Below the pieces are notes generated by a model. That model did no database searches, was not told the DNA's origin, and saw only the letters and a list, made by a program, of their open reading frames with translations. Shown one piece after another: positions 16,210-37,529 of a DNA stretch of 38,435 nt. Within the stretch, counting starts at the first letter, position 1; each line of letters opens with the position of its first letter. The stretch is from Abditibacteriales bacterium (GTDB lineage: Bacteria > Armatimonadota > Abditibacteriia > Abditibacteriales > JANWYM01). The stretch lies in contig JANWYM010000001.1 of the NCBI GenBank assembly GCA_025055355.1, positions 1 to 38,435 of the forward strand. Direction: 5' to 3'. The position numbers and the translations under genes are program-made.

Positions 16210-16644
16210 ATGCCGACGATTAGCCAACTCGTCCGCAAAGGGCGGAAGAAGGTGAGACACAAAACGCGCACCTCCGCGCTCAAAGAGGCGTTCAATGCGG
16301 TGAAAGGCAAGCCGACGCGCAACTATGCCGCCCCGCTGATGCGGGGGGTGTGCCTCGTGGTCAAGACCGCCGCACCGAAGAAGCCCAATTCCGCGTTGCG
16401 GAAAATCGCCCGCGTGCGGTTGAGCAACCGCAAGGAAGTCACCGCCTCCATTCCGGGCGAGGGGCACAACTTGCAGGAACACTCGGTCGTGCTGGTGCGT
16501 GGGGGTCGCGTGAAGGACATGCCGGGCATCAAATATAAAATCGTGCGCGGCAAGTTGGACTGCGCCGGCGTGGAGGGACGCCGCCGCAGCCGCTCGCTGT
16601 ATGGAGCAAAGAAACCGAAGGAACCAGCGACCAAGAAGCAGTGA
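16210..16644 (+). CDS. rpsL: 30S ribosomal protein S12
   Basis: [21 protein letters not shown] and [17 protein letters not shown]. It carries a roughly 10-17 aa extra segment ([17 protein letters not shown]) relative to E. coli/Thermus S12. Confidence 0.97.
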
Positions 16645-16686
16645 GCAGTGAAGACCATTGACGGGTCACTGGCTACTGGTCACTGG
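16639..16686. repeat. intergenic tandem-unit element, GTGACCA/TGGTCAC family (imperfect)
   Basis: cagtgagcagtgaagacc overlaps the rpsL stop, and ggtcactggctactggtcactgg lies at 16664-16686. Confidence 0.55.
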
Positions 16687-16712
16687 TTGCCGTTGTTGAA
16701 GAGGTGATTGTC

Positions 16713-17183
16713 ATGCCTCGCAAAGGACCTGCGCCGCGCCGCCGGCTGGAGGGCGATCCGGTGTTCGGAAGCGTGATGGCGCAGCGGTTCATTAACTGTT
16801 TAATGAGGAAGGGCAAAAAGAGCGTAGCGGAAAAGATCTTTTATGGCGCGCTGCAGCGCATCGCGGAGCGCACCCATCGCAACCCGCTGGAAGTGCTGGC
16901 GCAAGCCATCCGCAACGTGACGCCTCTGGTGGAAGTGCGCTCCCGCCGCGTTGGGGGAGCCACCTATCAGGTGCCGACCGAGGTGCGCGCTGAGCGCAAA
17001 ATCTCGCTGTCCATCCGCTGGATTCTGCAATACGCGCGCGAGCGGTCGGAAAGAGGCATGATAGAAAAACTGGCGAACGAGATTTTAGACGCCTCGCGTA
17101 ACACGGGCAACGCCATCAAAAAGAAAGAAGAGACGCATCGCATGGCGGAGGCGAATAAAGCCTTCGCCCATTATCGCTGGTAA
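16713..17183 (+). CDS. rpsG: 30S ribosomal protein S7
   Basis: MPRKGPAPRR..., EVRSRRVGGATYQVP, C-terminal AHYRW. 156 aa. Confidence 0.97.
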   Translation: MPRKGPAPRRRLEGDPVFGSVMAQRFINCLMRKGKKSVAEKIFYGALQRIAERTHRNPLEVLAQAIRNVTPLVEVRSRRVGGATYQVPTEVRAERKISLSIRWILQYARERSERGMIEKLANEILDASRNTGNAIKKKEETHRMAEANKAFAHYRW

Positions 17184-17203
17184 AAAAAAAACGTCGGTTC
17201 GAC

Positions 17204-17270
17204 GAGTTCAGGGGGTTCAGGGGGTTCAGGGGGTTGATGGACCCCCCTGAACTCGTGAACCCATGAACTC
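17204..17270. repeat. intergenic hairpin built from TTCAGGGGG x3 (9-mers)
   Basis: Units at 17207-17215, 17216-17224 and 17225-17233. The opposing arm is acccccctgaactcgtgaacccatgaactc (17241-17270). It is preceded by an A10 run (17182-17191) and the mini-stem cgtcg/cgacg. Confidence 0.75.
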
Positions 17271-17279
17271 TAATTGGTC

Positions 17280-19457
17280 GTGGCAAGCGCAAGGTTTCCG
17301 TTAGAAAAAGTCCGTAACATCGGGATTGCTGCGCATATTGACGCGGGTAAGACGACGACGACGGAGCGCATCCTGTTTTACACCGGGCGGGTGCACCGCA
17401 TCGGCGAAGTGGACGACGGCGCGGCAACGATGGACTGGATGCCCCAGGAGCAGGAGCGCGGCATTACCATTACGTCGGCGGCGACGACCTGCTACTGGCG
17501 CGAGCACCGCATCAACATTATTGACACGCCAGGGCACGTGGACTTCACCGTGGAGGTAGAGCGTTCGCTGCGCGTGCTGGATGGGGTGGTGGCGGTGTTT
17601 TGCGGCGTCGGTGGCGTGCAGCCGCAGACGGAAACCGTCTGGCGGCAAGCGAACAAATACGCCGTCCCGCGTATCGCCTACGTCAACAAAATGGACCGCG
17701 TGGGGGCAGACTTTCATAACGTCCTGCACCAGATGCGCGACCGGCTGGGTGCGAAAATCATCGCGCTGCAACTGCCCATCTTTCGAGGCGGCGCGATCGC
17801 CCGCGCCCAGTGGGAAATTACCGAGGGTGACGCCGAGGGTAAGCCGCTGTCGGGCGAAGAGTTCATCGGCGTCGTGGACCTCCTGCGCATGAAGGCGCGC
17901 ATTTACACCGACGACCTCGGCACGGTCAGCGAAGAAACCGACATCCCCGCCGAACTCCAGGAGGCAGCGACGGCGTTCCGTCAATACCTCCTTGAAACGC
18001 TGGCGGAGCGCGACGAGGCGCTCATGGAGAAATACTTCGAAATGGGCGATCTATCCGTCGCGGACCTCCAACAGGCGATTCGCCGCGCTACCATCGCTTG
18101 CGACCTCGTGCCGGTGCTGTGCGGGTCGTCCTTCAAAAACAAGGGGGTTCAACCCTTGTTGGATGCGATCGTTGACTATCTGCCATCGCCGCTGGACGTG
18201 CCGCCCGTCGAGGGGCTGGACCCCAAGAGCGGTCAGTTTATCACCCGCCAAGCCAGCCCTGATGAACCGTTCTCGGCGCTGGCATTTAAGATTCAGACCG
18301 ACCAGCACGTGGGACGATTGACCTACTTCCGCGTTTATTCTGGCACCGTTCGGGAAGGCTCTTATGTTTATAATCCCACCAAGCGCGTCCGCGAGCGCCT
18401 CAGCCGCCTCCTGCGGATGCACGCCAACCGCCGCGAGAAAATCGTCGAAGCCACAGCCGGTGACATCGTCGCCGCCGTCGGACTGAAGGACACCATCACG
18501 GGCAACACGCTCTGTGATGAGCAGCATCCCATCCTCCTCGAAGCCATCGAGTTCCCTGAGCCAGTCATCTTTGCAGCCATTGAGCCGAAGACCAAAGCCG
18601 ACAGCGATAAACTCATTGATACCTTGCAGCGGCTCTGCGACGAAGACCCCACCTTCAAGATGCGCGTCGACCCGGAAACGGGACAGACCATCATCGCCGG
18701 CATGGGGGAACTCCACCTCGAGATCATTGAGGACCGCTTGCGGCGCGAGTTCAACGTGCAGGCGAACGTCGGGCGTCCGCAGGTGGCTTACAAGGAAGCC
18801 ATCACTCAAGTCGCCGAAGCCGAGGGTAAGTTCATCAAGCAGACCGGTGGGCGCGGGCAATATGGTCATGTCATCCTGCGCGTCGAGCCGCTCCTGCCCG
18901 GCGGTGGCTTCCAGTTCGAGAGCCTGGTCGTCGGCGGCGAGGTGCCGCGCGAATACTGGTCCGCCGTCGAGAAGGGTGCGGAAGAAGCGATGGAGTCCGG
19001 CGTGGTGGCCGGCTATCCTCTCATGGACGTCAAAGTCACCCTGTTGGGCGGCTCCTCCCACCCGGTAGACTCGTCGGAAATCGCCTTCAAATTGGCGGCT
19101 CAGGAGGCGTTCCGCAAAGCGGTCCAAAAGGCGCGCCCCATCATCAAAGAGCCGATTATGTCTATGGAAGTCATCACCCCCGAAACGTATATGGGCGATG
19201 TGCTGGGGGACCTCAGCGCGCGGCGGGCGAAAATTGAAAGCATCACCCCTGTGGTCGGCGGGCAGGCGATTCGGGCGCATGTCCCGCTGGCAGAGGTCTT
19301 CGGTTATGCAACCGCGCTGCGCTCCCTGTCGCAGGGGCGGGCGACCTACTCCATGGAGCCCAGCCACTATGAGCAGGTGCCGCCGCCCATCGCCGAGGAC
19401 ATCATCGCCAAAGTACGGGGTCATTATCCTCGTCTCGTGGCGGGAGGGACTCACTGA
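17280..19457 (+). CDS. fusA: elongation factor G
   Basis: [27 protein letters not shown], domain [16 protein letters not shown] and [11 protein letters not shown] 17280 is preferred over TTG 17274 by N-terminal alignment. No clear SD. About 22-aa insertion [25 protein letters not shown]. Confidence 0.95.
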
Positions 19458-19465
19458 CGATTGAA

Positions 19466-19530
19466 GGTTAGCACGTTCGCATGTTCAACGTCTCAACGTG
19501 CCAACGTGCCAACGTTCGGATGTTCCAACC
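19466..19530. repeat. intergenic tandem-unit element, CAACGTG family (8-mers x4)
   Basis: Starts with ggttagcacgtt at 19466. The four 8-mers tcaacgtc/tcaacgtg/ccaacgtg/ccaacgtt lie at 19485-19516, flanked by the direct repeat acgttcg[c/g]atgttc. The ACGT cores allow many pairings. Confidence 0.7.
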
Positions 19531-19550
19531 GAATTAAAGGAGACCATAGC

Positions 19551-20753: not shown

Positions 20754-20777
20754 TTGAGTCGTGGAGGGGAGACACTT

Positions 20778-21086
20778 ATGGCAGGTGAAAAGATTCGCAT
20801 CCGTTTGAGAGCATTTGACCACAAGTTACTCGACCAATCCGCTGAGCAGATCGTGGACACGGCGAAGCGCACTGAGGCAAAGGTCGCCGGTCCCGTGCCG
20901 CTGCCGACGGAGCGCAACGTTTACTGCGTTATTCGTTCGCCGTTCGTGGACAAAGAGTCCATGGAGCATTTTGAAATCCGCACCCACAAACGGCTGATTG
21001 ACATCCTTGACCCCACCCCGCAGACGGTCAATGAACTCATGCGCCTTGACCTGCCCAGCGGCGTGGACATCGAAATCAAACTGTAG
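20778..21086 (+). CDS. rpsJ: 30S ribosomal protein S10
   Basis: [21 protein letters not shown]...GPVPLPT. GGAGGGGA upstream. Confidence 0.97.
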
Positions 21087-21183
21087 TTAAGGCTTAAGGG
21101 TTAGCACGTGGCCCCGGGGGCAGGTTGGCACGCTCAACCGGTCAACCCGCCAACGGGGCAACTCTCCACCCTTAGTCCTTAAC
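21086..21183. repeat. intergenic hairpin, GGTTAAGG family, with GGGTTAGCACGT motif inside
   Basis: gttaaggcttaagggt (21086-21101) pairs with acccttagtccttaac (21168-21183), 16 bp with a 2x2 internal loop. Interior motifs are gggttagcacgtg (21098) and the palindrome gccccgggggc. Confidence 0.75.
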
Positions 21184-21877: not shown

Positions 21878-21888
21878 CCTTATAGAGG

Positions 21889-21946
21889 GAGGGTTAAGGG
21901 TGGATGGTGACAGGAGCGACTTTTAACCTTGCACCTCTTAACCCTC
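21889..21946. repeat. intergenic hairpin, GGTTAAGGG family
   Basis: gagggttaagggtg (21889-21902) pairs with cacctcttaaccctc (21932-21946). Confidence 0.7.
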
Positions 21947-21962
21947 AACTTCGGGTTTTATC

Positions 21963-22591
21963 ATGCCAGAACTGAACGTTTATAACTTGAGCCACGAGGT
22001 CGTCGGCACGGTTCACGTGAGTGACGCGGTGGCGGGCGCGCCGGTCAATGTGCCGCTGGTGCATCAGGTCGTCGTCGCCAACCAGGCGGGGCGGCGACAG
22101 GGCACGCGCAAGACCAAAGGGCGCGGCGAGGTGCGCGGCGGGGGGCGGAAACCCTTCCGCCAGAAGGGCTTGGGGCGCGCACGGCACGGGTCGCGGCGGG
22201 AACCCCAGTGGGTCGGGGGCGGCACGGTGCATGGACCGCAGCCGCAGGACTCCACCAGCGCACACCCCGCCAGATGCGGCAGGCGGCGTGGCTGGCGGCG
22301 TTTGCCTCCAAACTGTCCGCCGACGCTGTGTCCGTCGTGGACGGTTTGAACCTAACCGAATACGACACCAAACGGGTGGTGGAGATCCTCCGCACCTTTG
22401 ACGCGATAGACCAGAAGGTGTTGATTCTCACGTTATCGCCCAACGAGTTTCTCGTGAAATCCGCCGCCAATCTGCCCCGCGTGAGAGTGCAGGACCTTAA
22501 GTTCACGGACGTCGTAGACCTGCTGCACGCCGACCGCGTGTTGACGACGCGCGAGGTGCTGCAAGCGATCGAAAGGAAGGGGGCGGCATGA
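21963..22591 (+). CDS. rplD: 50S ribosomal protein L4, reading frame broken by a 1-nt frameshift near 22250
   Basis: Frame A (21963-) gives ...[43 protein letters not shown]. Frame B (to 22591) gives [21 protein letters not shown]... Together they form a normal L4. The stop overlaps the rplW start (ATGA). Confidence 0.85.
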
Positions 22592-22884: not shown

Positions 22885-22945
22885 TGGCGAGGCGAAGCGT
22901 CAATGGTTCATGGTCAATACTGAACGGTGTGTGAACGACGAGCAG

Positions 22946-22983
22946 GTCGCAACTGGCTGGAGGGCTGGTCAACCAATTGTGAC
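22946..22983. repeat. intergenic hairpin, GTCACAATTGG family (degenerate left arm)
   Basis: gtcgcaactgg (22946-22956) pairs with ccaattgtgac (22973-22983). The 13-mer ccaattgtgactt is shared with 1231-1243. Confidence 0.55.
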
Positions 22984-23000
22984 TTGCTAACCAAGCAGCC

Positions 23001-23834
23001 ATGCCGATTAAGACTTTCAAGCCCACCTCGCCCGCGCGGCGACACATGACGGGCTATACGTTTGAGGAACTGACGAAGAAGCGCCCAGAGAAATCTTTGA
23101 CCGAGCCGCTGAAGAAACACGCCGGGCGCAACAATCAGGGACGGATCACGACGCGGCACCGAGGGGGCGGACACAAGCGTCTGTATCGCCTCATTGACTT
23201 CAAGCGGCGCAAAGATGGCGTGCCGGCGAAGGTCATCGCGCTGGAGTATGACCCGAACCGTTCGGCGCGGATCGCGCTGCTGCAGTATGAGGATGGTGAG
23301 AAGCGTTACATCATCGCGCCCCTGGGGTTGAGCGTGGGGGACACGGTGGAGTCCGGCGCCGACGTCGACATCAAGCCGGGCAACGCCCTGCCGCTGGAGC
23401 GCATCCCCGTCGGGACGACGATTCACAACATCGAACTCACCCCGGGCAAGGGGGGACAGTTGGTGCGCTCTGCGGGTAGTTCGGCGCAACTGGTGGCAAA
23501 AGAGGGCAACTACGCGCATATCAAGTTGCCCTCCGGCGAGGTGCGGCTCGTGCTCCTCAGTTGCCGCGCGACCATCGGGCAGGTGGGTAACACCGAGCAC
23601 GAAAACATCGTCATCGGCAACGCGGGGCGCAAGCGGCACATGGGCATCCGCCCGACCGTGCGCGGCAAAGCCATGCCCCCAGACTCCCACCCGCACGGGG
23701 GCGGCGAGGGACGCAACCCCGTGGGACGGAGGAAAACCGGTCCCACCAGCGCCACCGGCGTTCCCGCTATCGGCTACAAGACGCGCAAAAAAAAGAAAAA
23801 GTCGGATCGGTTGATTGTGAAGAGGAGAAAGTGA
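23001..23834 (+). CDS. rplB: 50S ribosomal protein L2
   Basis: [23 protein letters not shown], the SAG..A segment, HPHGGGEG. 277 aa. Confidence 0.97.
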
Positions 23835-23901
23835 CCAGTGACCAGTGACCAGTGGGCTGATTACTGATGACTGGTTAATCATTACTGGTCACTGGTCACT
23901 G
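23831..23901. repeat. intergenic hairpin, GTGACCA x3 / TGGTCAC x2 (heptamers)
   Basis: gtgaccagtgaccagtgaccagtg (23831-23854, containing the rplB TGA) pairs with ctggtcactggtcac (23885-23899). It is a near-copy of 29071-29134. Confidence 0.85.
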
Positions 23902-24195: not shown

Positions 24196-24201
24196 TCAAT
24201 G

Positions 24202-24226
24202 GGTTGAACGTGTTGACGCGTTGACC
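24202..24226. repeat. short tandem GTTGA(N)CG units
   Basis: ggttgaacgtgttgacgcgttgacc. This is a direct repetition only; no convincing opposing arm. Confidence 0.4.
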
Positions 24227-24255
24227 GATGGAGCAGTGGATGGGAGGTGTTGAGG

Positions 24256-25827: not shown

Positions 25828-26038
25828 ACATACCCTCAACGAGGAACGCAAACGTCTGCGCACCGCCAGCACGGAAGAGTTGCGCGCCGAGTTGGCGGCG
25901 GCGCGGCGCGAACTGGTCACCCTGCGCTATCAGTTGGCGCAGGCGGGCGGGCAGTTGGAAAACCCCATGCGCATCCGTCACACGCGCAAGCGCATTGCCC
26001 GGATTCATACGGTGTTGAGGGAGAGGAATGAAGGCTAA
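25814..26038 (+). CDS. rpmC: 50S ribosomal protein L29
   Basis: The L29 consensus region reads [50 protein letters not shown]. Overlaps the rplP end. Confidence 0.9.
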
Positions 26039-26179
26039 TGGTTAATGGTTGAGAGCCTCTCCGAAAGTAACGCAGGTTTCCCGCCTGCCTCAAGTGCCGC
26101 CAAGATGTCGGCGCTACGCGGTCTTCGGAGAGGCTCTAAGAGGCCGGGAAGCCGTTGAGCCTCAACCATCAACCATGCC
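26033..26179. repeat. composite nested hairpin: TAATGGT-unit outer arms plus an inner 12-bp perfect stem element
   Basis: Outer arms ggctaatggttaatggttgag (26033-26053) and ctcaaccatcaaccatgcc (26161-26179). Inner arms agcctctccgaa (26054-26065) and ttcggagaggct (26124-26135). gttgag is repeated at 26048 and 26154. Confidence 0.75.
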
Positions 26180-26449: not shown

Positions 26450-26452
26450 TCT

Positions 26453-26542
26453 CTGACCACGTGGCTACTGACCACAGGACCGGCAACCCGCCAGGTCAGC
26501 GGTCAGGGTCAGTGGTCATGTCGTCAGGGGTCAGTGGTCACT
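26453..26542. repeat. intergenic tandem-unit element, TGACCAC/GTGGTCA and GGTCAG units
   Basis: ctgaccacgtggctactgaccac (26453-26475) opposes ggtcagcggtcagggtcagtggtcatgtcgtcaggggtcagtggtcact (26494-26542). It ends 1 nt before the EF-G2 ATG. Confidence 0.7.
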
Positions 26543-28621
26543 ATGAAAATCTACCCGTCCAAGTCGCTTAGAAACGTCGCCCTCATCGGGCACACGGGCG
26601 CGGGCAAGACGAGTCTGGCGGACGCCATGGTGTTCACGGCGGGCGGCACGAACCGTCTGGGGAAGGTAGCGGACGGCACCAGCCTGTTTGACACCGACCC
26701 CGAAGAGATTGCCCGCAAGAACAGCCTGACCTCCGCCGTCGCTTGCGCCGAGTGGCGTGACCATCGCATAACCATCATGGACACGCCCGGCTTGCCGGAT
26801 TTCTTCGGCGCGGTGTTTGGACCGGTTCACATTGCGGATGCCGTCATCGTCGTGGTATCGGCAGTGGACGGGGTCGAGGTGCAAACGGAGCGCGCTTGGG
26901 CGCTGGCGCGCGAGCGCCATCTGCCCGCGATCGTGTTCATCAACAAATTAGATGCCGAACGCGCCGAGTTCGACAAAGTGGTGCAGCAGGTGCGCGAGCG
27001 GTTGAACGTAACGCCTGCCGTTGTGCAGCGCCCGATCGGGCTGAGCGCAAACTTCCAGGGCGTTGTGGACGTGCTGCGCGGGAAAGCCTACACATGGGCG
27101 GCGGGGGCGACAGGCAAAGGACAAGAAGGCGCCATCCCCGCCGACCTGCAGGCGGAGGTGGACGCCGCCCGGGAGTCGCTGACCGAAGCGGCGGCGGAAG
27201 GCAACGATGAGTTGCTGGAAAAATATCTGGACAGCGGAGAACTGTCAGCGGACGAGGTGCGGCAGGGTCTGCGGCAAGCGATTGGGACGGGCAAGGTCGT
27301 GCCGGTGCTGGGCGGCGCCGCCGACAGAACGGCGGGTGTGGCGAACCTCCTCGATGCCATCATTGATTTCTTGCCCTCGCCGCTGGACATCCCACCCGTC
27401 CCAGCGAAAAAGGCGCGCTCAGGGGAAGAAATCACAGTTGCCCCCACCGAGGGGGGACCGTTAGCGGCGCAGGTGTTCAAAACGGTTGCCGACATTCACG
27501 TGGGGCGTTTGAGTTTCATCCGCGTGTTGGCGGGCGAACTGCGCTCCGACTCGACGGTGTTCAACAGCAGCGATGGACAGCGCGAGCGCATCGGCCAGTT
27601 GTTCATCCCGCAGGGCAAGGAGCGCACGCCCGTTGCCAGCGCGAGGGTGGGCGACATCGTGACGACGGCGAAGTTGGAACACACCAACACCGGACACACG
27701 TTGTGTGACGAAGCCAACGCGGTCGTCTTCCGAGCACCCCAGTTCCCCCCGCCGACGATGTGGCTGGCGATTCACGCCAAGTCGCGCGGCGACGAGGACA
27801 AACTCAGCCTCGGCTTGCGGCGGCTCATCGAAGAGGACCCTTCGCTGCAATGGTATCGCAACAACGATACAGGCGAGACCATCTTAGCGGGACTGGGCGA
27901 TCAGCATTTACAGATGGCTATCGAGCGGCTCAAGCGGCTGGGCGTTGAGGTCACCACCTCCATTCCCAAAGTGCCCTACCGCGAGACCATCCGCAAAAAA
28001 GCGACTTACGTTGAGGGGCGCCACAAGAAGCAAACCGGCGGGGCGGGACAGTTCGGCGTGGCGGTCATTGACGTGGAGCCCCTGCCGCGCGGGAGTGGGT
28101 TTGAGTTCATTGACGCCATCGTGGGCGGCGTCATTCCCAGCACCTTCATTCCGTCTGTGGAAAAGGGCGTGCGCGAGCGGCTGGAACAGGGCTTCCTCGC
28201 CGGGTATCCGATGGTGGATGTGCGGGTGACGTTGGTCGACGGCAAGACGCACCCGGTGGACTCCAACGCCATTTCCTTCCAGTTGGCGGGGCGGCTGGCG
28301 ATAGAGAACGCCGTGCCGCAGTGCTCTCCGTATTTGCTGGAACCGATTTACAACGTGGAAGTGACCGTGCCAGAGGAAAACATGGGCGACGTGCTGGGCG
28401 ACTTGAACGGCCGGCGCGGGCGACCGATGGGCATGGACACCATCGGCGGCTGGTCGGTCGTGAAGGCGCAAGTGCCGCTCGCTGAGATGCTCACCTATTC
28501 CGCGACCTTGCGCTCCCTGACGCGCGGGCGCGGCACGTTTACGATGGAACTGTCCCACTACGAAGAGGTCCCCGCGCACCTCGCGGGGAAAGTGATTGAG
28601 GAGGCGAAGAAGAAAGACTAA
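26543..28621 (+). CDS. EF-G paralogue (EF-G2-type translational GTPase) inserted between rpsQ and rplN
   Basis: NVALIGHTGAGKTS (G1), DTPG (G3), NKLD (G4). All five EF-G domains are present, with domain IV HKKQTGGAGQFG and KTHPVDSN. The N-terminal pattern is like Thermus EF-G-2 as I recall it. 692 aa. Confidence 0.85.
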   Translation: MKIYPSKSLRNVALIGHTGAGKTSLADAMVFTAGGTNRLGKVADGTSLFDTDPEEIARKNSLTSAVACAEWRDHRITIMDTPGLPDFFGAVFGPVHIADAVIVVVSAVDGVEVQTERAWALARERHLPAIVFINKLDAERAEFDKVVQQVRERLNVTPAVVQRPIGLSANFQGVVDVLRGKAYTWAAGATGKGQEGAIPADLQAEVDAARESLTEAAAEGNDELLEKYLDSGELSADEVRQGLRQAIGTGKVVPVLGGAADRTAGVANLLDAIIDFLPSPLDIPPVPAKKARSGEEITVAPTEGGPLAAQVFKTVADIHVGRLSFIRVLAGELRSDSTVFNSSDGQRERIGQLFIPQGKERTPVASARVGDIVTTAKLEHTNTGHTLCDEANAVVFRAPQFPPPTMWLAIHAKSRGDEDKLSLGLRRLIEEDPSLQWYRNNDTGETILAGLGDQHLQMAIERLKRLGVEVTTSIPKVPYRETIRKKATYVEGRHKKQTGGAGQFGVAVIDVEPLPRGSGFEFIDAIVGGVIPSTFIPSVEKGVRERLEQGFLAGYPMVDVRVTLVDGKTHPVDSNAISFQLAGRLAIENAVPQCSPYLLEPIYNVEVTVPEENMGDVLGDLNGRRGRPMGMDTIGGWSVVKAQVPLAEMLTYSATLRSLTRGRGTFTMELSHYEEVPAHLAGKVIEEAKKKD

Positions 28622-28625
28622 CGTC

Positions 28626-28666
28626 TTCGTGTGTTCAGTCGTTACCCGCATACCCGAACACGCGAA
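28626..28666. repeat. hairpin downstream of the EF-G paralogue
   Basis: ttcgtgtgttc (28626-28636) pairs with gaacacgcgaa (28656-28666), 11 bp including one G-U, with a 19-nt loop. No U tract. Confidence 0.55.
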
Positions 28667-28701
28667 TCCGTGAATACTTGACTTGTGGAGGTAGGTAGGC
28701 G

Positions 28702-29070: not shown

Positions 29071-29134
29071 GTGACCGGTGACCAGTAGCCAGTGACCAGT
29101 AGCCAGGGGGCTGATTACTGGTCACTGGTCACTG
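29071..29134. repeat. intergenic hairpin, GTGACCA family (twin of 23831-23901)
   Basis: gtgaccggtgaccagtagccagtgaccagtagccag (29071-29106) pairs with ctggtcactggtcactg (29118-29134). It starts immediately after the rplN TGA. Confidence 0.85.
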
Positions 29135-30112: not shown

Positions 30113-30191
30113 GGGACGGCAGGCAGCGAAGCGACGGCAGAGGGGGGAGAGGAACCCCTGTCGTTGTCCGTCGCTGTCCGTCGTGTTCCCC
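30112..30191. repeat. intergenic hairpin built from GACGGCA / TGTCCGTCG-like units
   Basis: ggggacggcaggcagcgaagcgacggcagagggg opposes cccctgtcgttgtccgtcgctgtccgtcgtgttcccc (30155-30191). Imperfect. Confidence 0.65.
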
Positions 30192-30407: not shown

Positions 30408-30461
30408 GGGCACGTCAGCACGTTCTGACATGCTAACGTGCTAACGTGCCAACGTGCCAAC
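30408..30461. repeat. intergenic hairpin, CAACGTG family (8-mers x3.6)
   Basis: gggcacgtcagcacgtt (30408-30424) pairs with aacgtgctaacgtgcc (30435-30450). Tandem ctaacgtg/ctaacgtg/ccaacgtg/ccaac at 30433-30461, ending 3 nt before the rpsH ATG. Confidence 0.75.
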
Positions 30462-30464
30462 ACC

Positions 30465-30860
30465 ATGCAGACCGACCCGATTGCTGATTTTTTGACGCGG
30501 ATTCGTAATGCGAACGCGGCGGGGCATGACGAGGTGCGCATCCCCTCGTCGAGACTCAAGGTGGAGATAGCAAAGATTCTCCAGTCCGAGGGCTACATCC
30601 GCGGCTACCAGTTGATTGACGATAAGAAGCAGGGCATCTTGCGCGTGCTGCTGAAGTATGGGGAAGGCCACGAGCGTGTCATCAACGGCTTGAGGCGGGT
30701 CAGCAAGCCCGGTCGCCGCATTTACGTCGGCAAGGATGACATTCCCCGCGTGCTGGGTGGGTTGGGCATCGCTATCCTGTCCACGCCGCGCGGCATCGTC
30801 ACCGACCGCCGCGCCCGACGGTTGGGCGTCGGCGGCGAGGTGCTCTGTGAGGTTTGGTGA
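30465..30860 (+). CDS. rpsH: 30S ribosomal protein S8
   Basis: [45 protein letters not shown]. No SD visible. Confidence 0.95.
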
Positions 30861-30870
30861 GCCGAACGGT

Positions 30871-30932
30871 AGGTTTTAGGTTCTGGGCGCTGCGTTTCAG
30901 GTTTTGTCCCCAGAACCCAGAACCTAAAACCT
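30871..30932. repeat. intergenic hairpin, 17-bp perfect stem AGGTTTTAGGTTCTGGG
   Basis: 30871-30887 pairs perfectly with cccagaacctaaaacct (30916-30932). An extra cccagaa unit at 30908 allows a slipped register. Confidence 0.85.
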
Positions 30933-30950
30933 GACGGAGAGTGGTTGGTT

Positions 30951-31532: not shown

Positions 31533-31537
31533 GCTCA

Positions 31538-31585
31538 GAAGGTCACAATCAAAAGTGACAAGGCTGACAAACCGATTGTGACTTC
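31538..31585. repeat. intergenic hairpin, GTCACAAT family
   Basis: gaaggtcacaatc (31538-31550) pairs with gattgtgacttc (31574-31585). A second small stem gtgaag/cttcac lies at 31586-31610. Confidence 0.7.
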
Positions 31586-31658
31586 GTGAAGTTCATTCTT
31601 GCATCTTCACAGCGCCTACGGTAAACTTATTGGGGCTGTAGGGAACGGTGAACAGCAT

Positions 31659-32040: not shown

Positions 32041-32748
32041 ATGCCACGCATCAATCCTGAAGATTTACAGCTGCAAGCCGGCAAACTCGTGCAACTCAAG
32101 CCGGTGTCGAAGACCGTCAAGGGCGGGCGCAAGCGTCGCTTCAGCGCGCTGGTGGTCGTGGGCGACGGTAAGGGGCATGTCGGCGTGGGGCTGGGCAAAG
32201 CCGCGGGGGTGCCAGATGCCATCCGCAAGGCGGAACAGACAGCGCGGCGCAACCTCATTCATGTCCCGCTGGCGGGTGGCACCCTGCCCCATCCCGTCAT
32301 GGGACGGCTGGGAGCCTCGCGCGTCCTGCTCAAACCCGCCGCTCCCGGTACGGGCGTTATTGCGGGAACGGCGGTGCGCGCGGTGCTGGAAGCCGCAGGG
32401 GTGCGCGACGTGCTGACGAAGTGCCTCGGCTCAACCAATCCGATCAACGTCGTCTACGCCACGATGGTAGGACTGCGCCAGGTGCGCCGCGCCACCCACG
32501 TGGCGAAATTGCGGGGGCGTTCTCTTGATGACCTGCCGATCCACCCGAAGATTAAGGAAGGGATTTTGGAGTATGAGTCAAACCTTGCCACAGTTGAAAG
32601 TCAAACTCGTCCGCAGTCCCATAGGGTCGCCGCAAGACCAGAAGGCAACGGTGAGAGCGCTGGGGTTGAAGCGGCTGAACCAGACGGTGATACACTCGAG
32701 CCATCCGACTATCTTAGGGATGGTGAGGAAGGTGAAGCATCTGATTGA
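32041..32748 (+). CDS. rpsE: 30S ribosomal protein S5 with about 60-aa C-terminal extension read through rpmD in another frame
   Basis: [40 protein letters not shown] and [12 protein letters not shown] form a normal S5 core. There is no stop until TGA 32746-32748. 235 aa versus the usual about 165. Confidence 0.85.
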
Positions 32749-32785: not shown

Positions 32786-32842
32786 GGGTTAGCACGTTGG
32801 CACCTTGGAGCGTTAATGTGCTACCGTGCTACCCCTTAACTC
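32770..32842. repeat. intergenic hairpin: GAG[GA]GTT heptamers x3 plus GGGTTAGCACGT motif
   Basis: Tandem gagggtt/gagagtt/gagggtt at 32770-32790. gagttgagggttagcacg (32780-32797) pairs with cgtgctaccccttaactc (32825-32842). Confidence 0.7.
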
Positions 32843-32852
32843 TTCCGTCCTT

Positions 32853-33311: not shown

Positions 33312-34646
33312 ATGGAGATGTTCAAATCGCTCCAAGCCGCCCTGAAGTTGCCCGACTTGCGCAACCGCATCCTCTTCGTGATGGGCATGTTGGCGGTGTA
33401 TGTGTTTGGGATCTGGATTCCGATTGACCGTGAACTGAGCAAAGCAGCGCAGTCGTTGGAGGGTGGCATCTTTGACATGATTGACATCTTCGGCGGCGGC
33501 TCGCTCAAGCGGTTCTCCATCTTTGCGTTGGGCATCATGCCCTACATCAGCGCCTCCATTGTGTTTCAGGTGTTGGCGATTGCGCTGCCCTCCATTCAGC
33601 GGTTGCAGAAAGAGGGGGAGTTCGGGCGGCGCAAGATATCCCAATACACACGCTGGCTGACGATGGGGCTGACCCTCGTTCAGGGGTTCATGGTCATCTA
33701 CGCCTTTAAGACGCAGGGGCTGATCCCCACCCTGTCGTTCTTTCACATTTTGAAAGCGGTCTTGACGCTGATGGCAGGGACGGCTTTTCTGATGTGGTTG
33801 GGCGAGCAGATCACGGAAAAGGGCATCGGCAACGGCATTTCCTTCATCATCTTTGCGGGCATCGTGGCGCGGCTGCCCAGCGAGTTGTGGCAGATTGTAG
33901 AGTTAGCGCGACAAGGGAGTGTGGCGTGGTTCAACGTCTTTGTCCTCTTCGCCTTTGCCATCGGCACGGTCGTCGCCATCGTCACGGTGACGCAGGGGGA
34001 GCGGCGCATTCCTGTGCGCTACGCCGACCGGGTGGCAGGGCGGCGGGTGATCCGTGGCGTGCGCACGCACCTGCCGCTGCGGATGGCGCAGGCGGGCGTC
34101 ATGCCCATCATCTTCGCGGTGACCGTGGTGATGCTGCCCGCGCAAATCCTGCAGTTCGTCCAACCCGTGATGCAGGGGCGCGAGATGTTGGGCATGGACC
34201 TGACGTTGATGGCTGCTAAGGTTGTCAACTTCTTCACGCCCGGGCAGAGCCACATTGCGGCACTGCTCTACGCCGCCCTGGTCATGGCGTTTACTTACTT
34301 TTACACGGCGGTTGTGATGGACGTGCGCGAATTAGCGGACAACCTCAAAAAGTCGGGCGGACAGATTCAGGGGTTTGCGCCGGGGCTGCCGACCGCGCAG
34401 TATATTGACCGCGTGCTGACGCGCATCACCTTCGCCGGGGGGCTGTTTTTAGCCCTGGTGGCTCTGTCGCAGTATTACGTGCCCGGCTGGGCGGGCTTTA
34501 GCGCAGTGCGCTTCAGTCTGATCGGGGGAACGTCGGTGCTCATTGTGGTCGGCGTGGCGTTGGAAACGATGAACCAGTTGGAACAACAGTTGAAGTTGCG
34601 GCAGTATGAGGGGTTCCACATCGGCGGGGGACGCAAAGCGGCATAG
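33312..34646 (+). CDS. secY: preprotein translocase subunit SecY
   Basis: 10-TM profile with LRNRILFV, IFALGIMPYISASI, WLGEQITEKGIGNGIS.IIFAGI. Starts right after the rplO TAG. Confidence 0.97.
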   Translation: MEMFKSLQAALKLPDLRNRILFVMGMLAVYVFGIWIPIDRELSKAAQSLEGGIFDMIDIFGGGSLKRFSIFALGIMPYISASIVFQVLAIALPSIQRLQKEGEFGRRKISQYTRWLTMGLTLVQGFMVIYAFKTQGLIPTLSFFHILKAVLTLMAGTAFLMWLGEQITEKGIGNGISFIIFAGIVARLPSELWQIVELARQGSVAWFNVFVLFAFAIGTVVAIVTVTQGERRIPVRYADRVAGRRVIRGVRTHLPLRMAQAGVMPIIFAVTVVMLPAQILQFVQPVMQGREMLGMDLTLMAAKVVNFFTPGQSHIAALLYAALVMAFTYFYTAVVMDVRELADNLKKSGGQIQGFAPGLPTAQYIDRVLTRITFAGGLFLALVALSQYYVPGWAGFSAVRFSLIGGTSVLIVVGVALETMNQLEQQLKLRQYEGFHIGGGRKAA

Positions 34647-34650
34647 AAAC

Positions 34651-34706
34651 GTATTCGGGGGTTCGGGTGGGTAAGCCGTCACCCGAACCCCCGAACAACC
34701 GAATAC
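34651..34706. repeat. intergenic hairpin, 16-bp perfect stem TTCGGGGGTTCGGGTG
   Basis: 34654-34669 pairs with cacccgaacccccgaa (34680-34695) around a 10-nt loop. The outer gtattcgg/ccgaatac extension gives alternative registers. Confidence 0.85.
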
Positions 34707-34721
34707 CCGGACACCCCTTCC

Positions 34722-35393
34722 ATGCGCAGGCGCATCGTTTTTTTGGGTCCGCCGGGGGCGGGCAAAGGCACGCAAGCCCAGATGCTTGCCGAGTTCTTGG
34801 GCGTGCCGGTCATTGCCACAGGCGACTTGCTGCGGGCGGAGGTCGCCGCGGACACACCTTTGGGACGACAAGCGCGAGAGTTCATGGAGCAGGGTGCCTT
34901 GGTGCCTGACCCCCTGGTCATGGAGATCCTGAAGCGTCGCCTTGCCCAGCCCGATTGTGAGCAGGGGTTCATTTTAGACGGCTTTCCGCGCACGCTCGCG
35001 CAAGCGCAAGCGTTGGAAGAGCTACTGGGTCCGCAGGGGAGAGCGATCGAAGCCGTTCTGGAGTTGGAAGTGCCAGAAGCCGTTCTCGTCGAGCGCTTCA
35101 GCGGACGACGGGTGTGCCGTCATTGCGGTCACGTTTACCACTTACACACGCACCCGCCGCGCTGCGCGGGGACGTGTGACCGCTGCGGGGATGCGCTTAT
35201 CCAGCGCGCGGACGACACGCCGGCAACGGTGCGGACGCGGCTGCAGATTTATCATCAGGCGACAGAGCCGCTGATTCATTTTTACCGAGAGCGCGGGCTG
35301 TTGCATCGCATTGATGGGTCGGGGGACATTGACCGGATTCAGCACGCCACTCGTGAGGTCGTCGTAGCCCAAGACGACACACAGGGCGCATAG
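34722..35393 (+). CDS. adk: adenylate kinase (Zn-lid type)
   Basis: FLGPPGAGKGTQA, ATGDLLR, GFILDGFPRT..QA, lid CRHCGHVYH...CDRCG. No SD visible. Confidence 0.95.
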   Translation: MRRRIVFLGPPGAGKGTQAQMLAEFLGVPVIATGDLLRAEVAADTPLGRQAREFMEQGALVPDPLVMEILKRRLAQPDCEQGFILDGFPRTLAQAQALEELLGPQGRAIEAVLELEVPEAVLVERFSGRRVCRHCGHVYHLHTHPPRCAGTCDRCGDALIQRADDTPATVRTRLQIYHQATEPLIHFYRERGLLHRIDGSGDIDRIQHATREVVVAQDDTQGA

Positions 35394-35411
35394 TCCGGGG
35401 AGTGCAGAGTT

Positions 35412-35630
35412 ATGCCGAAGGAAAAAGGGGTCGAGGTCGAAGGAGTCGTCAAGGAGACGCTGCCCAACGCGACATTTCGGGTGGAAATTGAGGGCGGGCA
35501 CGAGGTGCTTGCCCACGTCTCCGGCAAGATCCGTCTGAACTTCATCCGCATCTTGCCAGGGGACCGGGTGCGCCTTGAACTGTCTCCCTACGACCTCACA
35601 CGCGGGCGCATTCTATACCGCTACAAATAA
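35412..35630 (+). CDS. infA: translation initiation factor IF-1
   Basis: VE.EG.V.E.LPNA.FRVE...GHEVLAH.SGK.R...IRILPGD.V..ELSPYDL.RGRI.YR.K. Confidence 0.97.
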
Positions 35631-35651
35631 CAGAGAGAGGAGCCACCACCG

Positions 35652-35765
35652 ATGAAGGTGCGCGCGTCCATTCGCAAGCGCTGTGACACCTGCAAGATCA
35701 TCCGGCGCAAGGGGAAGGTTTACGTCATCTGTGAGACCAAAAAACATAAGCAACGGCAAGGGTAG
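35652..35765 (+). CDS. rpmJ: 50S ribosomal protein L36 (not in the supplied ORF track)
   Basis: Translates to [37 protein letters not shown], stop TAG 35763-35765. GAGGAG upstream. Confidence 0.93.
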
Positions 35766-35771
35766 AAGGCT

Positions 35772-35808
35772 ATGGTCAATGGTCCAGGGGACGTTGACCA
35801 TTGACCAT
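35772..35808. repeat. intergenic hairpin, 13-bp perfect stem ATGGTCAATGGTC
   Basis: 35772-35784 pairs with gaccattgaccat (35796-35808) around an 11-nt loop. A related gtcaatggttcatggtcaat lies at 22898-22917. Confidence 0.85.
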
Positions 35809-35824
35809 TCACCATGACGAGAGT

Positions 35825-36196
35825 ATGGCACGTATAGCCGGTGTGGACCTGCCGCGCGATAAACGGGTTGAAATAGCGCTGACCTATATTTACGGGATCG
35901 GCTTGACGACGAGTCAGCGCATCTTAGCCTCGGTAGGGATCAACCCTGACACGCGCATGAAGGACTTGACGGAACAGGAGATTGCGCGACTGCGGGAGGA
36001 AATCGAACGCAACTACCGCGTGGAGGGCGACTTGCGCCGCGAGGTGACCAGCAACATCAAGCGGTTGATTGAGATCGGCTCTTATCGCGGCTTGCGCCAC
36101 CGCCGTGGGTTGCCCGTGCGCGGTCAGCGGACAAAAACCAACGCCCGCACGCGCAAGGGTCCGCGCAAGACCGTCGGCGTGAAGCGGAAAAAGTAG
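35825..36196 (+). CDS. rpsM: 30S ribosomal protein S13
   Basis: [49 protein letters not shown]. Confidence 0.97.
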
Positions 36197-36272
36197 GGCG
36201 TAAAGCGTGAAACGTGGGGCGTAATGCGTAAGGCGCCATACGTATCCCGTATTACGCATTACGCCTCACGCC
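36197..36272. repeat. intergenic hairpin built from GGCGTAA[AT]GCGT units
   Basis: ggcgtaatgcgtaa (36218-36231) pairs with ttacgcattacgcc (36252-36265), 14 bp perfect. Further units gggcgtaaagcgtgaaacgtg and tcacgcc flank it. Confidence 0.8.
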
Positions 36273-36283
36273 TGAGAATTTGT

Positions 36284-36712
36284 ATGGCAACTGAGGGACA
36301 TAGAGAGACCCCCCAGCCCCCACCGCCGCGCCCCGTTCCGGGCGGGCGGCGGGGGCAGAAGCGCGTCTCCGCGAAGGGGATGGCGTTTATTCAGTCCACG
36401 TTCAACAACACCATCGTCACCATCACCGATGCGGAGGGCAACGTCGTCGGGTGGGCGAGCGCGGGGACGGAAGGATTTAAGGGCACGAAGAAAGGCACGC
36501 CCTTTGCGGCGCAAATTGCGGCGCAGAAGATCGCGCGCAAAGTCTACGACATGGGCATGCGCCGCGTGGATGTGTTTGTCAAGGGACCTGGCCCGGGTCG
36601 GGAGACGGCGCTGCGCGCGCTGCAAGCCAGCGGGCTGGAAATTGGGACGATCAAGGACAAAACCCCGCTTCCACACAACGGCTGCCGCCCGCGCAAGCGG
36701 CGCAGGGTGTAA
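36284..36712 (+). CDS. rpsK: 30S ribosomal protein S11 (Pro/Arg-rich N-terminal extension)
   Basis: [17 protein letters not shown]...W.SAG..GFKG.KK.TPFAAQ.AA, D.TP.PHNGCRP.K.RRV. Confidence 0.95.
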
Positions 36713-36714
36713 GA

Positions 36715-36790
36715 TGACCCCTGACCCCTGACCCCTGACCCCTGACCTTGCAGGTCGGGTGGTCCGGCGGTCAGTGGTTCTGCGGTCACT
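36715..36790. repeat. intergenic element: TGACCCC x4.7 (heptamers) opposed by GGTC-rich arm
   Basis: TGA of the unit at 36715, 36722, 36729, 36736 and 36743, so all three frames are covered. The right side is ggtcgggtggtccggcggtcagtggttctgcggtcactg. Confidence 0.75.
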
Positions 36791-36809
36791 GCGAGAGGGA
36801 CGATTTCAT

Positions 36810-37439
36810 TTGGCTCGTTATATTGACGCAAAGTGTCGGTTGTGTCGCCGCGAGGGGATGAAGCTTTTCCTCAAGGGCGAAAAGTGTATATCCAAGTGCG
36901 TGCTGGAGAGGCGCAAGAACCCTCCGGGGATGCACGGCAACAAGCCGCGCAAGAAGTTGATGGACTACGGCGTGCGGCTGCGCGAAAAGCAAAAGGCGCG
37001 CCGGATTTACGGCATCCTCGAGAAGCAGTTTAAGAACTACTTCGCCAAGGCGGCGCGGATGCCCGGCGTGACGGGCGAGAACCTGCTGCAACTGCTGGAG
37101 CGCCGCCTGGACAACGTCGTGTTCCGTCTGGGGTGGGGCGCCTCCCGCAATCAGGCGCGGCAGATTGTGCGTCACGGGCACGTGATGGTCAACGGGCGCG
37201 TGGTCAACATCCCGTCCTTTGAGGTGCGGGTGGGCGACACCGTCTCGCTCAAGGAGTCCAGTCGCACCAAGGGCGTCATCGCCGAGAACCTCGAACGCGG
37301 CGGGCGCAACCGCAGCCGCATTGACTGGTTACAAAAGTCTCCCGATCAACTCAGCGCGTCCGTCGTGGCTTTGCCCACCCGCGATCAAATTGATACAGAG
37401 GTCAATGAGCAACTCATCGTCGAGTATTATTCACGATAG
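36810..37439 (+). CDS. rpsD: 30S ribosomal protein S4 (Zn-finger type)
   Basis: TTG start gives (M)[33 protein letters not shown] lies about 9 nt upstream. [10 protein letters not shown].., the SR.QARQ region, HGH..VNGR.V.IPS. Confidence 0.93.
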
Positions 37440-37472
37440 GACCCACAAGGGACGCGAGGCAGGAAAAGGGAA

Positions 37473-37529
37473 AATGGAGAATCGAAAAAGGACGTCACCG
37501 TTGCGATGCGCTGTGGACTATTCTCCATT
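37473..37529. repeat. hairpin in the rpsD-rpoA spacer
   Basis: aatggagaat (37473-37482) pairs with attctccatt (37520-37529), 10 bp with a 37-nt loop. Confidence 0.55.

Follow-up and report, generated by a model that had tools for sequence, protein, structure and literature searches.

Why are most genes of a bacterial ribosomal superoperon separated by long spacers that fold into hairpins with repetitive arms? The locus that raises this question lies in a 38,435-nucleotide stretch of DNA from an Abditibacteriales bacterium of the phylum Armatimonadota (contig JANWYM010000001.1, assembly GCA_025055355.1); this whole stretch is referred to below as the window. Its first 16 kb carry unrelated genes (a Gfo/Idh/MocA oxidoreductase, a DUF4058 protein, an RND efflux system, and a Uma2 nuclease), and the str-S10-spc-alpha ribosomal superoperon forms one contiguous plus-strand block (16210-38435) running from rpsL (16210) to rpoA (37578 onward). 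The superoperon contains 33 junctions, of which 6 are overlapping, 5 are short (10 to 24 nt), and 22 are long (59 to 150 nt), with a long spacer defined as one of at least 40 nt. A preliminary description of the window had placed hairpins with tandemly repeated arms in the long spacers and had read them as a dedicated, previously undescribed class of intercistronic RNA elements. The long spacers and their hairpins proved to be real, and we assign a probability of about 0.6 to a different reading, in which they are slippage-prone hairpin cassettes resembling short tandemly repeated repetitive (STRR) and repetitive extragenic palindromic (REP) sequences, filtered and possibly co-opted at the RNA level. 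The identity of the elements as small palindromic cassettes, with STRR-like architecture and the behavior of REP sequences or miniature inverted-repeat transposable elements (MITEs), is well supported; by co-option, they may have acquired a role in mRNA segmentation and Shine-Dalgarno (SD)-independent re-initiation.

Folding of the 22 long spacers with RNAfold against 100 dinucleotide shuffles each, a check suggested in the preliminary description, gave a mean z score of -3.65 for the sense strand and -3.30 for the antisense strand, and 15 of the 22 spacers had z < -3. Tandem arrays with units of 7 to 10 nt were present in 17 of the 22, compared with 18 arrays per 1100 shuffled control spacers (1.6%). 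The periods were mainly 7 to 8 nt, with period 7 in 11 of the 22 window arrays. The density of arrays reported by Tandem Repeats Finder (TRF) was 10.5 per kb in operon spacers versus 0.74 per kb in operon coding sequence (binomial p = 6e-14). This contrast with coding sequence holds for the arrays and not for single heptamers, which are frequent there too (23 matches of GTGACCA and 15 of CAACGTG); thus, it is the tandem and inverted arrangement that is special and not the word itself. Raw minimum free energy in sliding windows was dropped as a discriminator because coding sequence at 60% GC equals the spacers in absolute stability, and only shuffle-normalized scores distinguish the two. The arrays quoted earlier all exist, namely, (GTGACCA)x3.6 at 23830, (TGACCCC)x4.7 at 36715, (GTTCAGGGG)x3.3 at 17206, and 8-mer arrays at 19486 and 30420, as do perfect stems of 17, 16, 14, and 13 bp at the positions given earlier and stop triplets in three frames (23832/23839/23846, 26036/26043/26050, and 36715/36722/36729). 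The recurrence of related unit families is likewise genuine, with several positions needing slight correction. The 11-mer GGTTAGCACGT occurs in three copies, all at the heads of spacer hairpins (19466, 21099, and 32787), where about 0.02 would be expected by chance. A copy of GTCACAATTGG lies at 22973 on the minus strand and not at 22946, the locus given as 31538 holds nothing beyond the 8-mer GTCACAAT at 31542, and GGTTAAGGG, assigned to two loci, has a single exact copy, at 21892. No intergenic tandem-arm arrays were found in the first 16 kb of the window.

A second EF-G-like gene (EFG2, 692 amino acids) is located at 26543-28621, between rpsQ and rplN inside the ribosomal operon. Its placement is identical in "Ca. 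Thermosaccharophagus" (L001), in L165, and at all clade loci and is therefore an old trait of the lineage. Relatives of the window were located by an EFG2 scan of species-representative genomes, followed by metagenome and protein-based look-ups. One contig (JAVQXT010000045.1, GCA_033577985.1) belongs to the window's own genome (99.98% identity). Six close relatives (L163, L169, L167, L081, L170, and L164) have EFG2 nucleotide identities to the window of 82 to 87% and to each other of 83% to 99.8%. Omitting L169, which is 99.8% identical to L163 in EFG2 and has equivalent spacers except for two whole-unit indels, left a nonredundant clade set of six genomes (the window, L163, L167, L081, L170, and L164). 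In this set, the median spacer z score ranged from -3.8 to -7.6, tandem arrays were present in 72 of 84 long spacers, and the five other genomes displayed the same 7- to 8-nt period pattern as the window. The closest named genome with operon synteny including EFG2, "Ca. Thermosaccharophagus gerlachensis" (Armatimonadota; L001), with ribosomal proteins about 42 to 78% identical, has nearly all short spacers (median, 15.5 nt) and no tandem arrays. An intermediate outgroup (L165; 60% amino acid identity), in which the gene order is likewise preserved, has 17 long spacers, with a median z of 0.0 and no arrays. The tandem-arm hairpins are a trait of one genus-level clade of an uncultured, hot-spring-type Armatimonadota lineage. 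The family motifs GGTTYTRGG/CCYARAACC, GTCAATKR, and ATGACCA/TGGACAT recur across species at different junctions and, among 174 loci, only at those of the clade. An assembly artifact was ruled out by recurrence in independent JGI, ENA, NCBI, and Logan assemblies.

The position of the hairpins, determined for 95 long spacers from seven genomes, is as stereotyped as had been claimed: they occupy same-strand gaps directly after stop codons. The distance from the stop codon to the main stem has a median of 2 nt and is at most 6 nt in 84% of cases, the stop codon itself often being paired, and the stem ends a median of 11 nt before the next start. The effective spacer (spacer minus stem span) has a median of 14 nt, like a whole spacer of L001, so each element is a compact insertion in an ordinary gap. 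The stems contain a median of 24.5 pairs in the window and 23 to 31 in the relatives; overall, they pair 12 to 47 bases (median, about 25). The 5' arm has more G than C in 73 of 81 hairpins (p = 3e-14) and is purine rich in 60 of 77. Stop triplets number 213 in the left and 147 in the right halves, and their total is 364 versus 294 in shuffles; an asymmetry between strands was ruled out (364 sense versus 347 antisense). Of 84 spacers, 23 close every reading frame within 35 nt, compared with 3.1 in shuffles. Many arrays have as their first unit the stop codon of the gene itself, e.g., TGAGTGC TGAGTTC TGAGTGC... in L164 and TAGGGCG TAAAGCG TGAAACG... in the window.

The supposed dedication to the ribosomal superoperon did not survive the comparison with relatives, which carry these families at an htrA-rph junction and inside an ABC-transporter operon as well. 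In a small non-ribosomal sample (about 52 kb from clade relatives, obtained via orthologues of the window's RND pump), four tandem-arm hairpins were found:

L172, 18957-19026: htrA-rph junction, GAGTCAAT family, z -5.2.
L174, 7616-7701: minus-strand ABC-transporter operon, TTTTGAG family, z -7.2.
L174, 11263-11354: minus-strand ABC-transporter operon, GTCAATGA family, z -7.1.
L173, 7524-7604: non-ribosomal same-strand gap, tandem-arm hairpin of shared families.

L172 and L173 have 6 convergent or divergent gaps of 40 nt or more, and no such hairpin lies in any of them. Three of the four hairpins are in minus-strand operons, and in all four the G-rich arm is again 5' relative to transcription; on contig L172, the GTCAAT motif is in the sense orientation in a plus-strand and a minus-strand operon alike. 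Thus, polarity tracks the gene rather than the replication fork.

Within the operon of the window, the elements are as follows (window coordinates; + is the plus strand):

16645-16696 (+), rpsL-rpsG: hairpin whose (GGTCACT)n arms are weak, decayed in part; arrays reported by TRF at 16637 and 16664; z -1.7.
17204-17270 (+), rpsG-fusA: hairpin in which (GTTCAGGGG)x3.3 at 17206 pairs with CCCCCTGAAC; fusA lacks an SD; z -5.3.
19462-19518 (+), fusA-tuf: hairpin with a GGTTAGCACGT head and (CAACGTGC)x3.8 as the 3' arm; 8-mer array at 19486; z -2.3.
21087-21182 (+), rpsJ-rplC: hairpin beginning at the stop codon, outer arms GTTAAGG/GGTTAGCACGT; rplC lacks an SD; z -4.1.
21878-21955 (+), rplC-rplD: hairpin of GAGGGAGGGTTAAGGG and CTCTTAACCCTC; no SD; z -4.4.
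22886-23000 (+), rplW-rplB: composite including a GTCACAATTGG-family member, weak overall; z -1.0.
23830-23901 (+), rplB-rpsS: hairpin in which (GTGACCA)x3.6 pairs with (TGGTCAC)x2; the stem includes the TGA stop and a perfect stem of 18 bp (23836/23884); z -5.9.
24199-24229 (+), rpsS-rplV: decayed remnant of the GTCAAT/GTTGAC family; SD kept; z -0.2.
26036-26179 (+), rpmC-rpsQ: nested element, outer (TAATGGT)2/(TCAACCA)2 arms around a second, unrelated long hairpin; no SD; z -5.8.
26450-26530 (+), rpsQ-EFG2: hairpin with (GGTCAGT)x6.7 as the 3' arm; z -6.4.
28622-28670 (+), EFG2-rplN: weak hairpin of GTGTGTTC and GAACACGC; SD kept; z -0.5.
29071-29132 (+), rplN-rplX: hairpin in which (GTGACCAGTAGCCA)x2.1 pairs with (ACTGGTC)x2.6; z -6.7.
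30115-30182 (+), rplE-rpsN: hairpin of the (ACGGCAGG...) family; z -3.6.
30409-30458 (+), rpsN-rpsH: hairpin with (ACGTGCTA)x5.2, 8-mer array at 30420; rpsH lacks an SD; z -2.5.
30861-30945 (+), rpsH-rplF: hairpin of the clade-wide GGTTYTRGG/CCYARAACC family, perfect core of 17 bp; z -3.8.
31535-31589 (+), rplF-rplR: GTCACAAT-family hairpin; z -4.3 (entire spacer).
32786-32835 (+), rpmD-rplO: hairpin with a GGTTAGCACGT head; rplO lacks an SD; z -5.9.
34654-34695 (+), secY-adk: hairpin with a 16-bp perfect stem (TTCGGGGG units), then extra (CACCCGAA)-type units; no SD; z -3.7.
35768-35813 (+), rpmJ-rpsM: hairpin in which (ATGGTCA)2 pairs with (TTGACCA)x3.1; z -2.6.
36197-36270 (+), rpsM-rpsK: hairpin with a 7-nt array in stop-codon phase (TAGGGCG TAAAGCG TGAAACG ...); z -2.9.
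36715-36788 (+), rpsK-rpsD: hairpin in which (TGACCCC)x4.7 pairs with a GGTC-rich 3' arm, among the few with the C-rich arm first; z -4.0.
37444-37551 (+), rpsD-rpoA: long imperfect hairpin without tandem arms; z -2.9.

Conservation of the elements, which the preliminary description had proposed to seek in orthologous spacers, was not observed, and the sequences are replaced entirely between close relatives. Local alignments of window spacers with their orthologues scored 5 to 18 (shuffled-null maximum, 13.5), and at 87% gene identity the window hairpins have no likeness to the orthologous hairpins. At rplC-rplD, for example, the arms are GAGGGAGGGTTAAGGG.../...CTCTTAACCCTC in the window, (GTGAGGG)n/(CCCTCAC)n in L081, (CAGTGAG)n/(CTCACTG)n in L170, and (GGATGAG)n/(CTCATCC)n in L164. 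For 52 of 84 spacers, the best-scoring partner is a nonorthologous junction: rplV-rpsC and rpsM-rpsK of L164 are near-identical (score 51.5), and rplB-rpsS and rplN-rplX of the window score 28.5 (null maximum again 13.5) and have the loop GGGCTGATTACTG in common. Between L163 and L169, 15 of 9105 coding positions differ (0.16%), and the only two indels in 10.3 kb are both in tandem arms, one of 10 nt (1 unit) and one of 21 nt (3 x 7 nt). Empty or near-empty sites occur at rplB-rpsS in L081 (7 nt) and at rplE-rpsN in L164 (15 nt), the latter junction having a single-unit "proto" hairpin in L170, and nested insertions are seen at rpmC-rpsQ in the window, rpsH-rplF in L163 (276 nt), and rpmJ-rpsM in L167. 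At rplF-rplR, L163 and L167 (95.6% gene identity) differ by an exact cassette replacement between fixed flanks. As read from these comparisons, slippage, nesting, and cassette replacement are the behavior of repetitive or mobile copy-and-replace DNA and not of a conserved structured RNA. Whether a junction has a hairpin changes far less readily than the sequence of that hairpin. Comparison of filled and empty sites gave TGA-element-TGAGG versus TGAGG (L081) at rplB-rpsS, and the inverted ends of a MITE are trivially present; at rplE-rpsN, the corresponding sequences are TAG-element-TGAG and TAGTGAG (L164), and no target-site duplication was seen there.

The sole exception to the lack of orthologous similarity is the 3' half of the rplF-rplR spacer (about 31596-31655, CTTGCATCTTCACAGCGCCTACGGTAAACTTATTGGGGCTGTAGGGAACGGTGAA). 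It lies outside the repeat element and is conserved in four species, while the adjacent cassette has been replaced. This segment could be a regulatory leader for rplR, and it has no Rfam match.

Loss of the SD is the second feature that sets the hairpin-bearing junctions apart. An SD was scored when the duplex with ACCUCCUUU reached -5 kcal/mol or stronger. By this measure, only 46% of genes behind hairpin-bearing clade spacers have an SD (median, -3.2), a deficit with p = 0.0007. In the same genomes, the proportion is 91% after short spacers and 100% at overlapping junctions, and in the outgroups it is 93 to 100%, including 20 of 20 of the outgroup long spacers. Paired tests against L001 gave p ~0.01 to 0.02 in five of six clade genomes and 0.06 in L081, with 6 junctions. 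The five genes already thought to lack a visible SD had anti-SD duplex energies of +0.6 (rpsH), +1.2 (rplO), -3.2 (adk), +0.6 (rplC), and -0.9 kcal/mol (fusA). In all sampled clade genomes, rpsJ-rplC, rplC-rplD, rplW-rplB, rpmC-rpsQ, rpmD-rplO, and secY-adk are SD-less, with differing hairpins, and rpsQ-EFG2 is SD-less in five of six; at these junctions a hairpin is always present in the clade, whereas in the outgroups an SD stands there without a hairpin. Leaders that lack an SD are short (stem to start median, 9 nt) and U/C rich. A "split SD" just 5' of the stem, which folding would carry to the start codon, was not supported (pre-stem anti-SD energy of -2.7 for SD-less junctions versus -4.1 kcal/mol; p = 0.15). 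SD loss at hairpin junctions fits the earlier idea that downstream initiation may depend on termination beside the hairpin. Two further signals point to the RNA level: the predicted structures contain 170 G-U pairs on the sense strand versus 114 on the antisense strand (p = 0.005), and the sense strand is the more stable in 36 of 59 spacers (p = 0.026).

Heptamer repeats of the STRR type have been known since about 1990, and the STRR2 unit TTGGTCA corresponds, in reverse complement, to the TGACCAA unit of L164 and L167. The architecture is not without precedent, as had been supposed. STRR sequences, usually with 7-bp tandem units, form hairpins between the cistrons hupS and hupL in four cyanobacteria, where their role was described as unknown and the same two functions, transcript stability or translational coupling, were suggested (PMC2670836); intergenic arrays in Nostoc include (ttgtcag)n (PMC2408588). 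The likeness lies in intergenic tandem units of about 7 bp, with paired arrays forming a hairpin between two cistrons of one operon, and may extend to dispersal: STRR sequences occupy many loci per genome, and the families described here recur across junctions and at three non-ribosomal loci. The hosts differ, with STRR sequences in filamentous or heterocystous cyanobacteria and the present elements in Armatimonadota of about 60% GC. The elements in these genomes also have 7- to 10-nt units in many families, nearly saturate a ribosomal superoperon, and sit immediately at the stop codon; the cited STRR papers do not report the polarity, the turnover of cassettes, or the SD loss documented above.

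REP sequences are palindromic units of 20 to 40 bp with a GTAG or CGTC tag at one end (PMC3733652). Like BIMEs and REPINs, they are mobilized by RAYT transposases (TnpA_REP). They are extragenic, lie downstream of coding regions and mostly between unidirectional open reading frames (ORFs), come in multiple families per genome, form larger hairpins as inverted doublets, and behave as within-genome sequence populations (PMC3733652, PMC3116915). Same-strand placement 3' of genes, plausibly transcribed RNA hairpins, several families, and population-like behavior are all shared with the elements studied here, and genuine GTAG...CTAC palindromes coexist with them (window 6117-6180; rplN-rplX of L163). 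The difference lies in the arms, which are tandem direct repeats instead of single 20- to 40-bp palindromic units and change in length by unit slippage. In addition, the GTAG tag is missing from 71 of 84 hairpins and CGTC from 80 of 84; GTAG stands at stem ends in 13 of 84 (3.4 expected) and CGTC in 4 of 84 (6.6 expected). Palindromes of the REP type were seen beside tandem-arm hairpins at 6117-6180 and about 15013-15046 in the window and at 8350-8500 in L163 (rplN-rplX), where two GTAGTTCCGCCTTAAGGCGGAACTAC copies lie inside a duplicated 60-nt segment.

TAACTGA heptamer repeats of the Beggiatoaceae stand 5' of start codons, including those of fusA, L3, and S4, and apparently replace the SD; CspB binds heptamer repeats (PMC4679880). 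Like the present elements, these arrays (in marine Beggiatoaceae, cyanobacteria, and Bacteroidetes) are intergenic, rich in stops, and found within ribosomal-protein operons. Unlike them, they have one fixed sequence, consist of direct repeats essentially without an inverted partner, and abut the start codon; here, the units differ at every junction, the arrays are complementary pairs, and they abut the stop codon. A functional analogy exists with the RNase III hairpins of phage T7 early mRNA and with Escherichia coli REP stabilizers, intercistronic stems that are cleavable by RNase III or block 3' exonucleases and leave the message upstream protected by a hairpin, in that each places a long stem between two cistrons of a shared transcript. 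The T7 sites differ in having conserved, specific sequences and internal loops. The stem length of the present hairpins is adequate for an RNase III site (about two helical turns of double-stranded RNA), which makes cleavage a candidate property. Integron attC sites were rejected because the R'' (RYYYAAC) and R' (GTTRRRY) cores were both present in 0 of 84 spacers, and a permissive cmscan of the whole window for Rfam families and ribosomal-protein leaders returned one chance miRNA match (E = 0.31). No description of such repeats in Armatimonadota was found in the literature.

Under the reading that we favor, the cassettes would be generated by replication slippage and inter-locus copying, and selection at the transcript level would retain only self-folding ones of the correct polarity that are situated between the stop codon and the ribosome-binding region. 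The stems in the polycistronic mRNA would most likely serve as barriers to 3' exonucleases or as substrates of RNase III, and by keeping stop and start close together the hairpin could let terminating ribosomes re-initiate, so that the SD would become dispensable. Several points weigh against this account. No transposase was found in the window and the approximately 20-kb pieces of relatives, and no copying mechanism or enzyme was identified there; the sample of non-ribosomal DNA is small. Three window hairpins fold weakly and have decayed (rpsS-rplV, z -0.2; EFG2-rplN, z -0.5; rplW-rplB, z -1.0), and structure is thus not kept everywhere. In rpmC-rpsQ of L081, all three left-arm units carry an A-to-C change while the right arm is unchanged, and the ATGACCA/TGGACAT family has a fixed A-A mismatch per unit in two species; such independent homogenization within arms breaks the pairing and argues that repeat dynamics at the DNA level outrun selection on RNA structure. 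The correlation between hairpin z and SD absence (rho -0.36) is significant and confounded, since SD-bearing spacers carry longer unstructured tails and the absolute dG values are alike, and we discount it. The G-U excess could stem from transcription-associated C-to-T deamination of the sense strand, and SD loss could be a scar of insertion, with initiation relying on the U/C-rich unstructured leaders and not on the hairpin.

In a second reading, the elements are purely selfish or neutral repeats, REPIN- or MITE-like and subject to slippage, which have no role in the cell and whose position, polarity, and form merely reflect which insertions are harmless. We regard this as unlikely and at the same time as a serious contender. 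It accommodates the total sequence turnover, the swapping of cassettes, and the whole-unit indels between near-identical strains, along with the empty sites, the decayed copies, and the within-arm homogenization that weakens pairing; the families shared with unrelated operons and the excess of GTAG REP-like palindromes in the same spacers (13 of 84 versus 3.4) fit as well. It does not readily accommodate hairpin presence at a junction outlasting hairpin sequence, the sense-strand G-U excess, or the strict polarity. Moreover, seven SD-less junctions always have a hairpin in the clade and have an SD without a hairpin in the outgroups, and the genes concerned are essential and highly expressed, so a lost SD needs some compensation.

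A bolder claim in the opposite direction, that the hairpin has taken over the job of the SD at about half of the clade's ribosomal-gene junctions, appears rather doubtful to us. The base of the stem would bury the stop codon and place the next start about 10 nt beyond the other side of the base, and the terminating ribosome would be handed straight to that start in a bacterial counterpart of hairpin "shunting" or 70S re-initiation. If the fold alone mattered, cassettes would be interchangeable, and their presence would be conserved while their sequence was not. Once the SD had decayed, the hairpin could no longer be lost, which would amount to a constructive-neutral-evolution ratchet driven by selfish repeats.

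The interpretation offered in the preliminary description, a dedicated functional class of intercistronic RNAs that cuts or stabilizes the 22-kb transcript of the ribosomal superoperon and gates downstream initiation, is improbable. Arrays in 17 of 22 operon spacers and no intergenic ones in the first 16 kb of the window gave it its appeal, as did the 22 long junctions out of 33 and an SD loss specific to those junctions. The non-ribosomal copies in L172, L174 (two), and L173 contradict it, as do ribosomal sites that are empty in individual genomes, the lack of sequence or covariation-type conservation at orthologous sites, and the lack of any Rfam match. What stands of the RNA-element interpretation are its RNA-level signs (polarity in 73 of 81 hairpins, G-U pairs at 170 versus 114, and SD loss); dedication, conservation, and novelty do not. 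Very improbable is the idea that the 7-nt units are sites for a protein binding single-stranded RNA or DNA (a cold-shock or S1-type OB fold, one per heptamer), with the hairpin secondary. The predominant 7-nt period, the U/C-rich tails of SD-less junctions, and the TAACTGA precedent in Beggiatoaceae, with SD-replacing heptamers 5' of starts, protein binding proposed, and CspB binding to heptamers (PMC4679880), would suit it, but the units are wholly different between junctions and species, leaving no common recognition sequence, and the arrays are nearly always complementary pairs that would sequester one another. Finally, that the hairpins are intrinsic terminators or attenuators grading transcription along the operon is hardly credible in spite of strong GC-rich stems and some T-rich tails (e.g., TTTTATC before rplD and TGTTGTTTT in relatives), because plus-strand terminator-like hits miss the spacer hairpins except for one weak hit at 30852, most hairpins have no U tract, and a terminator after nearly every gene of an essential superoperon is implausible.

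Outside the operon, the hairpins of the window (1184-1248, 1419-1482, 1631-1719, and 6117-6180) are palindromes without tandem arms, some of them REP-like with GTAG...CTAC ends. Two have features of their own:

1184-1248 (+): hairpin of the GTCACAATTGG family; the 3' end of a small ORF extends into it.
6117-6180 (+): GTAG...CTAC REP-like palindrome starting in the TAG stop of the DUF4058 gene, a related yet distinct kind of element.

The region 956-1720 consists of a small DUF5678-like ORF followed by the three strong hairpins at 1184-1248, 1419-1482, and 1631-1719. The last 19 or so codons of the ORF lie within the first hairpin, and the element appears to be the source of a new C terminus and stop codon. 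Two tandem arrays were located inside genes: a heptamer array, (ATCCGCC)x4.4, in the RND adaptor gene (11157-11187) and a 21-nt x4.2 array in the Uma2 nuclease gene (15144-15232, minus strand).

Some further observations concern the ribosomal genes and their flanks. The presumed operon leader (about 16130-16200) contains a perfect 11-bp hairpin (GTTTGCCCCTC...GAGGGGCAAAC) just 5' of the rpsL ribosome-binding site. Directly 3' of rpsG (17184-17206), an A10 run and a small CGTC-tagged palindrome (CGTCGGTTCGACG) look like an intrinsic terminator when read on the minus strand and could stop antisense transcription entering the operon. The rplD gene (21963-22591) has 629 nt in two frames, with a 1-nt deletion near 22251 (GGAC-TCC versus GGACTTCC in L163); the gene is intact at 630 nt in relatives, and the break in the window is either a sequencing or assembly error or a genuine frameshift. 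The rpsE (S5) frame overlaps rpmD (L30) by 176 nt in a different frame (32573-32748). This overlap is identical in L163 and L164 and is 107 to 122 nt in outgroups, and public gene calls retain one gene or the other. The S11 protein (rpsK) has a Pro-rich N-terminal extension (36284-36385) whose length differs between relatives and whose DNA in the window forms a very GC-rich hairpin within coding sequence. Inconsistencies are present among the start and gene calls publicly deposited for these contigs, where several are affected.

The present case differs from the known ones in the host phylum, the many unit families, the stop-anchored paired arrays, the near-saturated superoperon, and the documentation of polarity, turnover, and SD loss. 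The seven sampled clade genomes form a graded series of divergence (82 to 99.8% EFG2 nucleotide identity) and provide a cleaner natural experiment on the question posed by STRR-type repeats, as the same essential operon carries different cassettes at the same junctions, with empty sites, one-unit proto-hairpins, and nested insertions all captured. Software for gene calling or operon prediction that takes short ribosomal spacers and an SD for granted will place starts wrongly in genomes of this kind. The co-occurrence of hairpins with SD loss links selfish repeat DNA to the translation of essential genes, and, if re-initiation or transcript segmentation by the hairpins is true, mobile, slippage-prone DNA would be rewiring translational coupling in the most conserved operon of bacteria.

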